From a virus: 25,786 nt of DNA. Positions 17,544 through 20,455 of the stretch are shown here, in pieces. The notes below the pieces were generated by a model. The model ran no database searches. It saw only the letters and a list, made by a program, of their open reading frames with translations, and was not told the origin of the DNA. Location of the stretch: the UHGV virus genome UHGV-1799016; one strand, 5' to 3'. The first letter of the stretch is position 1. Every line of letters begins with the position of its first letter. A program made the translations under genes and the position numbers.

Positions 17544-17837
17544 ATGACAGAACCCAAGAAACGGAAGAAATATGGTGGTCGCACCAAGGGCACTCCCAAC
17601 AAGGTGACGGCCGATATGAGGGCAACCATCAAGTCGTTGCTCGATGAATATAGCGGCAGCGGCAAGATGACAGACGACTTTGGCCGACTCAAACCCAAAG
17701 AGCGTTTGGCCGTGGCCGAAAAGCTCATGCAATATGCCATTCCCAAACTGCAGGCCACCACGCTCGAGGTGAGCGAGGGTGCCACCAAAACCATTGAAGA
17801 CACGCTGCTCGAACTCTCTCGTTTGTCTGATGTGTGA
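17544..17837 (+). CDS. Hypothetical small protein with strongly basic N-terminus (KKRKKYGGRTKGTPNK); possible nucleic-acid-binding protein
   Basis: ATG-initiated 97-aa ORF directly after the giant gene; Lys/Arg-rich N-terminal 20 residues, then an acidic helical-looking remainder. Confidence 0.45.
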   Translation: MTEPKKRKKYGGRTKGTPNKVTADMRATIKSLLDEYSGSGKMTDDFGRLKPKERLAVAEKLMQYAIPKLQATTLEVSEGATKTIEDTLLELSRLSDV

Positions 17838-17877
17838 CTATTTAAGGGTGTCCACTAGCCGCAGAGTGCTATCTTTG
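17838..17877 (+). promoter_or_regulatory. Bipartite promoter-like motif, copy C (CTATTTAAGGG, then TATCTTTG 32 nt downstream)
   Basis: CTATTTA at 17838-17844 and TATCTTTG at 17870-17877, a perfect match to the Bacteroidetes -7 consensus TAnnTTTG; same spacing as copies A and B. Starts immediately after the stop codon at 17835-17837. Confidence 0.4.
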
Positions 17878-17926
17878 TGCCGAAGATGTGTGGGTGCACA
17901 CGTTTGAACGTTAATGAATAGGTTTG

Positions 17927-17968
17927 CTTCGCTCCGTCGACGGATGAGTCGGTGGGGCGAAGTTTTTT
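17927..17968 (+). terminator. Candidate intrinsic terminator (9-bp stem, one G-U pair, 18-nt loop, T6 tract)
   Basis: CTTCGCTCC (17927-17935) pairs with GGGGCGAAG (17954-17962), followed by TTTTTT (17963-17968). The loop contains the perfect palindrome CCGTCGACGG. Confidence 0.45.
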
Positions 17969-17996
17969 GTTGTCTCCCCGAGGAGCGTGCTTGGTG

Positions 17997-18051
17997 GTGT
18001 CTATTTATGGGTGTTGCGCGGTGTGTAAGTGCTATATTCGCGCAAAACAAC
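17997..18051 (+). promoter_or_regulatory. Bipartite promoter-like motif, copy B (GTGTCTATTTATGGG, then TATATTCGCGCAAAACAA 32 nt downstream)
   Basis: GTGTCTATTTA at 17997-18007 and TATATTCGCGCAA at 18033-18045; identical boxes and spacing to copy A; about 35 nt upstream of the ATG at 18081. Confidence 0.4.
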
Positions 18052-18080
18052 ACAGATACGCAACTCCAAACAAAATAGAG

Positions 18081-18821
18081 ATGGGAGACAATAAAACAGA
18101 AACGAAAAGCAAGCGCGAATCTTTTTTGTCGCGCATGAAGGAGAAGCACCCCGATGTGGACTTCGACGATGAGGACGCTCGCTATGGTCAGTTTACCGAC
18201 GACCTCGATGCGCTCGAAGCGGAAAACGGCGCGATGCGTGACCGCGAGGGCAAGCTCACCACTATGTTCAATTCTCACCCTCAGGCAGCAGCTATGATGG
18301 TAGACTGGATGGACGGTGGCGACCCAGTGGTAACCTTGGTGAAGCGTTTCGGACCCGAGCTTTCAGAAGCCTTGCAAGACCCCGAGAAGCAAGAACAGCT
18401 AGCAGCCGCGCAAAAGGATTATTTAGAGCGTGTGGCAAAGGAGAAAGAGCTAGAAGCGCAATATCAAGAAAATCTTTCTGCATCCCTCACAGAACTTGAC
18501 AAAGTACAGGAAGAACTTGGACTTACAGATGAAAAAGCTGACGAAGCTCTTAAGTTGATTATCAAGATAGCCAACGATGCTATTATGGGCATTTTCACTC
18601 GTGAGAGTTTAGAAATGGTGTTGAAGGCTATAAACTACGACACAGACGTGGCAGCGGCTGATTACGAAGGGGAGGTGCGTGGAAAGAATACCAAAATCAC
18701 GGAAAAACTCAGACAGAAAGGAGCAGGAGACGGAGTTCCTGTACTGGGTGGCAAGAGTGGTGGTGCGCTTAAGACGCAGCCCGTAGACGATATCTTTAGC
18801 GAAGCAGCAATGGCTCGATAG
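18081..18821 (+). CDS. Putative head scaffolding-like protein (acidic, helical/coiled-coil); start chosen at ATG 18081
   Basis: The ORF-track entry 17952-18821 begins at a GTG inside the promoter/terminator cluster; the first ATG (18081, MGDNKTETKSK) lies just downstream of promoter-like copy B. Acidic protein with long helical heptad-like stretches, sitting immediately upstream of a capsid-sized gene. Confidence 0.4.
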   Translation: MGDNKTETKSKRESFLSRMKEKHPDVDFDDEDARYGQFTDDLDALEAENGAMRDREGKLTTMFNSHPQAAAMMVDWMDGGDPVVTLVKRFGPELSEALQDPEKQEQLAAAQKDYLERVAKEKELEAQYQENLSASLTELDKVQEELGLTDEKADEALKLIIKIANDAIMGIFTRESLEMVLKAINYDTDVAAADYEGEVRGKNTKITEKLRQKGAGDGVPVLGGKSGGALKTQPVDDIFSEAAMAR

Positions 18822-18854: not shown

Positions 18855-20375
18855 ATGGCAGACAACATTAGCGTCAATGTAACAGAAAAGACATTGACAA
18901 CTCAACCTGGTTCAGCAGGCTTGAATACTCAAGTCCCTGGACAAGCGGCAACAGTCAGTGGTGCAGCGGAAGCCACTGGCGGAATTGGCGCAGGTCATTT
19001 TGTCGAACGTGACATTGACCAGAACCTATTTAATTTCCGTTGTGCCACACACTTGTATGATTTGTCTATTAAGGCTAAGAACGTGCCAGTTACTTCGCCA
19101 GAGGTAGAACATTATATGGTTGATGACCAGCGAGCATTCGTCACTGTAAAAACAGAACTAGCAGAAAGTGCTGCGTTCCAAACGACAATCCCCCTAGAAG
19201 CTAAAGATGCAAACTTTGCACGTCCATACTCCACGCTCCTAGTGTCAGGTGTTGCTGGTTACGCTCCTGATGGTAAAACCCAAACCCCTGGGCAGCCTTT
19301 GATGCTTCTTGTCACTGGGATTTCAGACGAAACAGGCAATCCTATTGTTCGAGCTATGAATGGTAAAAAGGCTAATCCTAGTGATGAGTTTGGGAATATT
19401 CCTACTATTCCTGCTGGTACAAAGATTTACCTTTTGGGCAATGCGCTTTATGAAACTCAGAAGGAAGTAGAACCCGACCTTTACTTGCCACAGCCAAGTG
19501 TTGTTTATTTGCAAAAGCGCGCTGTCAACAATGTTATCTCAGACTACTTTGAGTCTCAGAAAAAGCGCACTCCCTACTCAAAGGCACAAGTAGCAGAGCA
19601 AGCTATTACAAATTTCAAACGAAAAGGCAATCGTACGTATTGGGCGGGGCGTGCTGGTAAAATCAAAGTGGACACTAAGAAAGTTGGTATGCAGTATCTG
19701 TATACAACAGAGGGAATTCGTTGGCAGTTTAAGCGTGAATTGCGCCACGTAGGCAAGTGGGTTATCGAGGAACTTATTGCTCTTGCAAAAATGTTCTATA
19801 CTGGTAATGATAAGCCTTCTTCTTGTACGGCACTATTGGGCAAGAACCTATTGGAAAGTTTGCAGTGCATTGATTACTCCAAGCATCCAGAGGTGAAAAT
19901 CGATACCAAAGAAAATAAAATAGGTTGGTCGGTTGTGTCAGTGAAGACAGTGTTTGGTGATATTGATTTGCTTTATGAGCCAGCTTTGGATGAACTTGGT
20001 TGGGCAAATAGCGGTGCGTTGATGAGCTTAGACCACTTGGTGCGCTATGTACGTTCTAGCGAAAAGACCTTCAATGATGATATTGAGGGAGAAGAAGCGA
20101 AACGTAGTGGCGTTATCGTGTGGGATGCTGTAGCATTGAAGGGTAACTGTCATATTTGGATTGACGGTGAAGGAACTACAGCACCGATGACTGGTATTCA
20201 GAATATCGGAATTTGGAAAGAAAGCACAGCCCCAACAGGAAATGATTTGGTTGTGGGACGTATCTACTATCTTCAACAAGCTGTGACTAGCATTAGTGCT
20301 AATTCTGCTGAAGGTCAAATGTGGCAATGGGATGGTTCTGCTTGGAAAGAAGTGAAGGGCGACTTCCAAGGCTAG
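18855..20375 (+). CDS. Putative major capsid protein (506 aa)
   Basis: Assigned from position (directly after the scaffold-like gene, followed by a strong terminator hairpin), size and mixed alpha/beta character. No motif-level confirmation is possible by eye. Confidence 0.4.
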   Translation: MADNISVNVTEKTLTTQPGSAGLNTQVPGQAATVSGAAEATGGIGAGHFVERDIDQNLFNFRCATHLYDLSIKAKNVPVTSPEVEHYMVDDQRAFVTVKTELAESAAFQTTIPLEAKDANFARPYSTLLVSGVAGYAPDGKTQTPGQPLMLLVTGISDETGNPIVRAMNGKKANPSDEFGNIPTIPAGTKIYLLGNALYETQKEVEPDLYLPQPSVVYLQKRAVNNVISDYFESQKKRTPYSKAQVAEQAITNFKRKGNRTYWAGRAGKIKVDTKKVGMQYLYTTEGIRWQFKRELRHVGKWVIEELIALAKMFYTGNDKPSSCTALLGKNLLESLQCIDYSKHPEVKIDTKENKIGWSVVSVKTVFGDIDLLYEPALDELGWANSGALMSLDHLVRYVRSSEKTFNDDIEGEEAKRSGVIVWDAVALKGNCHIWIDGEGTTAPMTGIQNIGIWKESTAPTGNDLVVGRIYYLQQAVTSISANSAEGQMWQWDGSAWKEVKGDFQG

Positions 20376-20408: not shown

Positions 20409-20455
20409 GGCCGCGAGTTTGTGACAGAAAGAATCTAAACTCGCGGCCTTCTATT
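20409..20455 (+). terminator. Perfect 12-bp inverted repeat hairpin followed by a T-rich run; probable intrinsic terminator after the capsid-like gene
   Basis: GGCCGCGAGTTT (20409-20420) and AAACTCGCGGCC (20437-20448) are exact reverse complements around a 16-nt loop, followed by TTCTATT. Confidence 0.55.

Follow-up and report, generated by a model that had tools for sequence, protein, structure and literature searches.

The window analysed here, one strand of 25,786 nucleotides from UHGV virus genome UHGV-1799016, was found to be a podovirus-like phage or prophage stretch of Bacteroidales type. Its central feature for the present purpose is a gap of 243 nt between a small basic gene and a scaffold-like gene, flanked by the following genes.

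2163-2675, plus strand: T7 gp14-like gene, the first gene after promoter copy A (see below)
Between the gp14-like and giant genes, plus strand: gene of 499 aa
4150-17475, plus strand: giant gene of 4441 aa
17544-17837, plus strand: small basic gene of 97 aa with a GGRTKGTPNK motif, closing the gp14-like/giant polyvalent-protein operon according to the list of open reading frames
18081-18821, plus strand: scaffold-like gene of 246 aa (phrog_22323), the first gene of the capsid operon
18855-20375, plus strand: capsid gene of 506 aa, SU10_MCP/DUF5309-like, after the scaffold-like gene

The upstream operon, comprising the genes for the gp14-like protein, the giant polyvalent protein and the small basic protein, extends over 15.7 kb and closes with the TGA stop codon of the 97-aa gene at 17835-17837. 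On the other side of the gap, the capsid gene is followed by an SU10-adaptor-like gene and then by other structural genes. The giant protein, as encoded in near-identical contigs, was shown to carry SNF2/helicase, MuF_C, ART-PolyVal and LPD38 domains. The 246-aa product is probably a scaffold, and its homologs were assigned to Prevotella wherever a name is given. The 506-aa protein displayed a faint SU10_MCP match, and its sole match among GenBank phages was a DUF5309 protein of Bacteroides phage BF1-TP2 (27% identical). Homologs of the small basic protein were found across Bacteroidota; the protein matched no Pfam family, and its AlphaFold2 model, of mediocre confidence (pLDDT 71), matched no fold in the PDB. 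A blastn comparison of the region with GenBank phages returned no match. The phage is of the Prevotella/Bacteroidales type, and the locus examined here lies between its two structural-gene operons.

Two further hairpins were observed within these operons. A strong, G+C-rich hairpin without a T-tract occupies 17479-17524 in the 68-nt gap between the giant and small genes (-29.8 kcal/mol, z = -5.75) and recurs with an altered sequence in L001 and L002, two of the related phages. It could serve in transcript processing or stability, or act as a partial terminator by which expression of the small gene is set. In the 92-nt gap past the capsid gene, a perfect 12-bp hairpin (GGCCGCGAGTTT/AAACTCGCGGCC, 16-nt loop, 20409-20448) is followed by TTCTATTAAAG rather than a T-run, and may serve as a 3' stabiliser or a weak attenuator past the major capsid gene.

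Directly past the stop codon of the small gene lies a promoter-like element, copy C, which belongs to a family of four copies.

2098-2137, plus strand: promoter copy A, CTATTTAAGGGG ... TATATTCG, 25 nt upstream of the ATG of the gp14-like gene
17838-17877, plus strand: promoter copy C, its first base directly past the TGA of the 97-aa gene
17838-17851, plus strand: upstream element of C, CTATTTAAGGGTGT, common to copies A and B
17870-17877, plus strand: -7 box of C, TATCTTTG, without mismatch to the sigma-ABfr consensus of Bacteroidota, TAnnTTTG
18001-18040, plus strand: promoter copy B, CTATTTATGGGTGT at 18001-18014 and TATATTCG at 18033-18040, kept in relatives
20735-20772 of contig L463 and 20760-20797 of contig L464: promoter copy D, ATTTAAGGGTG...TAGATTTG, about 16.6 kb downstream of copy B

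The original prediction had placed copy C, with a perfect -7 box, right after the small-gene stop codon and copy B past a terminator, and all of these placements were borne out. The upstream element of C contains the invariant core ATTTA (17840-17844, approximately -42 to -38 from the predicted start), and the distance from this core to the -7 box is exactly 25 nt. Among copies A, B and C, only C possesses the perfect TAnnTTTG, the shared box TATATTCG of A and B having one mismatch. The combined pattern ATTTA-N25-TAnnTTYG matched the window three times as against 0.01 expected from shuffles, and all three matches (A, 2100-2137; C, 17840-17877; B, 18003-18040) were intergenic and on the plus strand. 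Copy D was reached via two near-identical contigs of the window phage type, L463 and L464, which encode an identical downstream protein; an 895-aa gene stops directly before it, a P22-portal-like gene begins 15 nt past its end, and no terminator was found behind it in either contig.

Copies A, B and D lie 15-40 nt upstream of the first ATG of an operon (40 nt in the case of copy B and the scaffold-like gene), and C alone is without a gene. In Bacteroides, the commonest length of 5' UTRs is 23 nt and the median 32 nt (PMC7366714); because the distances from A, B and D to the ATG match these typical lengths, the motif behaves as a promoter. The spacing is unchanged in the homolog of copy A in an L001-type phage (L338), and in several distant relatives the ATTTA-N25-TAnnTTYG pattern also immediately precedes the homolog of the small gene. 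A scan of IMG/VR with the pattern ATTTAAGGG-N21-TAnnTTYG yielded at least 120 scattered single matches on unrelated contigs, none of which encodes a homolog of a window protein, and these were set aside as noise at that pattern strength.

Bacteroidota promoters are characterized by a -7 box TAnnTTTG, a looser TTTG at -33 and an A/T-rich spacer of variable spacing (PMC7366714). Copy C departs from this description in that its spacer is G+C-rich and no TTTG occurs near -33; the conserved upstream element is instead ATTTA(W)GGG, with its TTTA ending 25 nt before the box. With its upstream element near -40 and this G+C-rich spacer, the family is not of the textbook sigma-ABfr kind; a phage factor may be involved, and the activity of C could require such a factor or particular conditions. 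In the window lineage, C and B share the additional likeness CTATTTAWGGGTGT and AGTGCTAT.

Just left of promoter A, and separated from it by 1862-2097, the window carries a UbiA-prenyltransferase-family gene on the minus strand (896-1861, Pfam E = 9e-25). A different gene takes its place in L338, and for this reason a module or prophage boundary probably lies near 1900-2100.

Past copy C, the gap contains a single hairpin of the terminator type.

17926-17968, plus strand: intrinsic terminator, a 16-pair stem (17926-17941 with 17948-17963) closed by the loop GGATGA and ending in T6 at 17963-17968

A 9-bp stem followed by T6 had been proposed at 17927-17968; its location was correct, and the stem proved to be longer, comprising 16 pairs from 17926, of which the proposed 9 bp, CTTCGCTCC (17927-17935) with GGGGCGAAG (17954-17962), form the outer part. 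With 9 G-C pairs among the 16, a 6-nt loop and a fold of -26.1 kcal/mol (z = -5.6), this element combines the hairpin and U-tract of an intrinsic terminator; no other terminator-like site in either half of the window comes near it in size. It certainly also serves the upstream giant-gene operon.

In order to follow the locus in relatives, the scaffold-like and small proteins were searched against a set of 5.8 billion proteins, and viral, metagenome and genome contigs were drawn on. The order giant gene, small gene, gap and scaffold gene was recovered by that search in only three sequence-distinct lineages.

Window type: the window, L004, L089-L091 and L463/L464
L001 type: scaffold protein 87% identical
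L005 type: scaffold protein 78% identical

The gap is otherwise unalignable among these lineages. In each of them, however, ATTTA lies 2 or 3 bases past the stop codon and a -7 box follows 25 nt past ATTTA, namely TATCTTTG in the window, TATCTTCG in the L001 type and TACCTTTG in the L005 type. A MAFFT alignment of the intergenic regions mis-registered the -7 box of L001 and the hairpin of L005 and was dropped; invariant positions were therefore counted in an ungapped three-way comparison anchored on ATTTA.

ATTTA: 5/5 positions invariant in the three lineages
-7 box: 6/8 positions invariant
25-nt spacer: 0/25 positions invariant
Next 40 nt: 2/40 positions invariant

This footprint is the one expected where purifying selection acts on a promoter of two parts held at a constant distance, and neither a single protein-binding site nor a decaying duplicate would produce it. 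Within the window lineage, 13 positions of the gap are variable and none of them falls in the boxes of C. Taken together, the comparisons support C as a genuine, selectively maintained member of the promoter family of the phage.

The terminator was conserved in a different manner. Only two substitutions in its stem were detected in the window lineage, both at the pair 17937:17952 and each one-sided, the U-G pair being converted to C-G in L004 and to U-A in L089, L090 and L463. In every lineage a stable hairpin is found 30-48 nt past the C box, and the stem sequences are unrelated. The L001-type hairpin has 15 pairs and a T-run of 6-8 depending on the variant. The L005-type hairpin, which consists of 12 G+C-rich pairs with a 15-nt loop and the tail CUCUUUCUUUGG with a broken T-tract, is non-canonical and was not called as a terminator by a simple scan. 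Because both changes at 17937:17952 give a Watson-Crick pair, the structure is maintained, and the relatives as a whole support a terminator kept by structure and not by sequence. A covariance model or an R-scape-type covariation test was ruled out by the number of lineages, three only.

Changes were also noted at the border between the small gene and the gap. The last ~30 nt of the small gene (17808-17833) are highly variable in comparison with L089-L091 and L464, with an indel and a different stop codon, and the adjoining gap is almost invariant among these otherwise near-identical phages, which points to a recombination breakpoint at the stop codon, just before C. In L091 (1-2809 of a JGI contig), the homolog of the small gene begins with a foreign N-terminus, and a 301-aa HTH_7/transposase-like gene together with a host-type Mfd (TRCF) gene replaces the giant-gene operon; the gap with C, terminator and B is still nearly identical to that of the window. 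L091 looks like a rearranged or degraded prophage.

Other motifs were found to accompany the homologs of the small and scaffold-like genes. The 9-mer CTACTTTAG, the core of a near-palindrome TCTA-CTT-TAGA, is tightly linked to small-gene homologs across Bacteroidota, occurring in the window at 2075-2085 (minus strand, ACTACTTTAGA), in L338 at ~533-545 and at many loci among L096-L335. It lies upstream of the small gene in 33 of 176 distinct loci (within 150 nt, mostly 10-46 nt), always on the minus strand, and downstream in another 21 of the 176 (within 150 nt, mostly 5-33 nt past the stop codon), always on the plus strand; elsewhere only 5 copies were counted in 740 kb, the chance expectation for those 740 kb as a whole being about 5.6. 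It has stayed beside promoter A in the window clade, with the small gene at the far end of the operon. The small protein may recognise this 9-mer as an operator or as a pac or cos-type site. A derivation of the upstream element of C from the copies that follow the small gene in distant relatives is at most conceivable, as the similarity is weak and no -7 box occurs at a fixed distance past the motif. Direct-repeat arrays, which look iteron-like or pac-like, lie ~100-330 nt past the small gene in L104, L190 and L101, and also occur in L191, L182 and L103 (examples in these distant relatives are TTTCCTCAAACTTAA..GGGGTTTTGTTTGAGGAAAC and ATTTCTTCCGAAGTTATAGCC). The small gene lies within 0-2 kb of the end of many IMG/VR contigs and, in L180 and L100, is convergent with a tyrosine-integrase-like gene. 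In ~77 distant relatives (L012-L088), a divergent gene stands before the scaffold-like gene, and a promoter ~60-70 nt upstream has a perfect TAnnTTTG 35-42 nt before the ATG and a conserved A-rich element, GTAAAAAGATAAA/GTTAATAGATAAAAG, ~23 nt upstream of this box.

The arrangement of C and the terminator delimits the following predicted transcript and its parts.

17882-17968, plus strand: predicted C-initiated non-coding transcript of ~85-87 nt, with its start derived from the position of the box and its end in the T-run
17884-17905, plus strand: 5' hairpin, a 9-bp stem AGAUGUGUG/CACACGUUU with the loop GGUG, window lineage only
17914-17926, plus strand: short conserved stretch ATGAATAGGTTTG, adjoining the terminator stem
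17919-17926: second -7-like box TAGGTTTG inside the conserved stretch, AAGGTTTG in the L001 type

As -7 elements are centred at -7 and starts prefer purines (PMC7366714), we infer that transcription from C would begin at the purines 17882-17885, 5-8 nt past the box. Because C is conserved as a promoter and the hairpin is of the terminator type, a C-initiated transcript of ~85 nt is a reasonable expectation. The predicted RNA folded with -38.1 kcal/mol (z = -6.6), and structure prediction of the interval, which had been suggested as a check, formed both the terminator hairpin and the 5' hairpin. The 11-codon frame that had been singled out at 17886-17921 (ATG to TAG, MCGCTRLNVNE) is indeed present; it is absent in the relatives, would be almost leaderless and finds no support. 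No conserved open reading frame was detected on either strand among the relatives compared, and a minus-strand frame of 146 codons was discarded as having no counterpart in them. Rfam returned chance-level matches only for 17300-18300 at E ≤ 10, and RNAduplex scores of the putative RNA against 12 start regions in the window were at or below background, a comparison that was set aside as uninformative. The predicted unit, having a promoter and a terminator of its own and being non-coding, corresponds by its sequence to a stand-alone intergenic sRNA gene.

The body of the putative RNA was poorly conserved between lineages. The 5' hairpin is absent from the folds of the L001-type and L005-type transcripts. 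On inspection, ATGAATAGGTTTG and its L001-type counterpart ATGAAAAGGTTTG were identical at 12/13 positions, and ATGAAWAGGTTTG is the sole stretch between C and the terminator that is common to the window and L001 types; of the conserved stretch, the L005 type retains AAGGT alone, in the loop of its hairpin. With no more than ~5-12 nt in common before the terminator, an RNA function that depends on sequence is weakly supported. The interval 17878-17936 contains no substitutions within the window lineage, where variable sites amount to ~5% overall, an invariance that is only weakly suggestive.

The original prediction had offered three roles for the interval, a small RNA, a leader/attenuator or a terminator with an overlapping promoter, and it is partly supported. 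All these features are brought together in the explanation that we prefer, which we hold with about even confidence: C would fire, the terminator would both end the upstream operon and define an ~85-nt non-coding RNA, and B would restart the capsid operon. The host sigma-ABfr-type -7 box and the ATTTAWGGG element near -40 would constitute a working promoter, from which RNA polymerase would start at ~17882-17885 and reach the terminator (17926-17968) ~45 nt on. In the RNA released, the 5' hairpin would be joined to the terminator hairpin by an A/U-rich single-stranded linker. The operon of the gp14-like, giant and small genes would be closed by that terminator as well, and copy B would restart transcription into the capsid operon. 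The firing of C, its start site and the arrest of most C transcripts at the terminator are inferences; our guess for the role is a small stand-alone transcription unit, a candidate phage sRNA expressed alongside the structural genes, with C taken as the ancestral capsid-operon promoter that the terminator and B now part from its operon. Counting against this explanation are the poorly conserved RNA body, the negative target search in the window, the departure of the promoter from the canonical host form and the non-canonical hairpin of the L005 type; transcription of the upstream operon may also occlude C.

This unit resembles the canonical intergenic sRNA genes of B. thetaiotaomicron, which possess a sigma-ABfr promoter and an intrinsic terminator and of which 49 are classed as 'high-confidence' (PMC7366714). 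Like them, it would be a stand-alone unit with a sigma-ABfr-type -7 box and a Rho-independent terminator ~85 nt on; it contains no conserved open reading frame, and a single-stranded stretch adjoins its terminator. Unlike them, it is phage-borne, lies between structural operons and shares its terminator with the upstream operon; moreover, this candidate has an unusual -40 element, a G+C-rich spacer and a poorly conserved body.

Among phages, the oop RNA of lambda and the sar RNA of P22 are ~70-90 nt long, are furnished with their own promoter and intrinsic terminator, and are antisense to a neighbouring gene. The predicted C RNA is similar to them in size, in its own promoter and terminator and in its position in a phage junction region. 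It differs in that nothing is encoded opposite to it, and any target would therefore have to lie in trans.

An explanation that we regard as doubtful is that no separate transcript exists and the locus is an ordinary junction, in which the terminator of the giant operon is followed by B and C is unused as a promoter, being either a recognition site (ATTTAWGGG) for a phage regulator or a packaging protein, or else a promoter silenced by occlusion from upstream. A terminator would be required in any case for an operon of 15.7 kb, and this one is the only strong terminator there; polymerases arriving from upstream cross C, as C begins directly past the stop codon. The upstream element differs from the canonical TTTG at -33, and the extra likeness of C and B in CTATTTAWGGGTGT and AGTGCTAT could stem from a protein-binding site common to both or from gene conversion. 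In distant relatives, the non-promoter motif CTACTTTAG is found past the small gene, showing that this position can host protein-binding sites. Yet a binding site alone leaves the kept -7 box and its exact 25-nt distance across a randomised spacer unexplained, and three paralogous copies all stand at operon starts. Occlusion, for its part, would not lift selection on a silent promoter for so long, and the L001 type keeps a second terminator past C.

The possible origin of C counts in favour of the preferred explanation and also bears on the remaining alternatives. In L008, a relative with 64% identity and without the small gene, one composite element lies directly past the stop codon of the giant gene. 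AAGGG and the box are spaced as in C, and the spacer accommodates a terminator hairpin whose T-tract runs into the -7 box TATTTTTG; 23 nt beyond lies the scaffold ATG. The junctions of L008 and the window are alike in lying past the stop of the upstream operon, in this spacing and in having the same capsid operon next; they differ in that the one element of L008 terminates, restarts and drives the scaffold gene, whereas the window clade has C, terminator and B in series, which leaves C without a gene. An embedded hairpin is strong in the C of the L001 type, with a U-rich tail (z = -6.6), weak in the L005 type and missing in the window. By this comparison, C looks like an ancestral capsid-operon promoter that is now split from its operon by the terminator and B. 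Because the L001 type keeps a second terminator even though its embedded hairpin could suffice, the arrangement suggests that C-initiated transcription itself is meant to be stopped, always or conditionally.

It is conceivable, and in our judgement unlikely, that the interval acts as a leader/attenuator or an antitermination gate. C would then be an extra, ancestral capsid promoter and the terminator a conditional or leaky one within a leader of ~200 nt; read-through from C, spontaneous or driven by a phage antiterminator, would add to the output of B, and the short RNA would be a by-product. The position of C directly upstream of a late/structural operon and its apparent homology to the sole capsid promoter of L008 are consistent with such a gate, as is the retention of a terminator behind C in the L001 type, where a terminator-like hairpin is already embedded. 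An unconserved body is expected if the RNA itself is unimportant, the -7-like box TAGGTTTG/AAGGTTTG before the terminator could in principle be a sigma-dependent pause element, and the L005-type tail CUCUUUCUUUGG suggests a leaky terminator. Against this, the conserved promoter B stands between the terminator and the operon, so that read-through from C is not needed, and the window and L001-type terminators, with 15-16 pairs and T6-T8, look strong. No antiterminator was recognised among the Pfam and PHROG matches of ten window genes. An attenuator, one of the roles proposed for the interval, found no support in its classical form: no conserved antiterminator pairing was present in the MFE and centroid structures of the three lineages, the only competing pairing being a 5-bp CGAAG/CUUCG possibility in the window alone.

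The late switch of lambda, in which the promoter PR' is followed by the terminator tR', yields the 6S RNA and is governed by Q antitermination. The C locus is comparable in that a promoter upstream of a virion-gene operon meets a terminator within ~100-200 nt, which would give a short abortive RNA, and in that a -7-like box lies in the early transcribed region. It differs in the sigma factor and promoter grammar and in its second conserved promoter past the terminator, and no Q-like gene or Q-binding element was identified in the ~36 kb of phage sequence covered, the -7-like box at 17919-17926 being the one hint of such a module; a lambdoid Q-type system would have no other late promoter, and here the capsid operon has B in front of it, past the terminator. 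We consider it very improbable that C and its terminator are the Bacteroidota-phage counterpart of the lambdoid switch, with initiation at a strong promoter of the phage's class, a pause at TAGGTTTG/AAGGTTTG and antiterminator-dependent release into the capsid operon, and to our knowledge no late-gene antitermination system of that kind has been described for Bacteroidota phages.

Phages of gut Bacteroidales (Prevotella/Bacteroides) are abundant, and their gene regulation is almost unstudied. The locus provides a promoter grammar for one group of them, ATTTAWGGG with a -7 box exactly 25 nt past the ATTTA core, in four instances, one of which is a clean, conserved promoter-plus-terminator unit without a gene. 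Should the ~85-nt RNA not exist, the locus would still illustrate the stacking and reshuffling of terminators and promoters where operons meet; if the RNA does exist, it would be a candidate phage-encoded small RNA, or the mark of a terminator gate before the capsid genes, in Bacteroidota.
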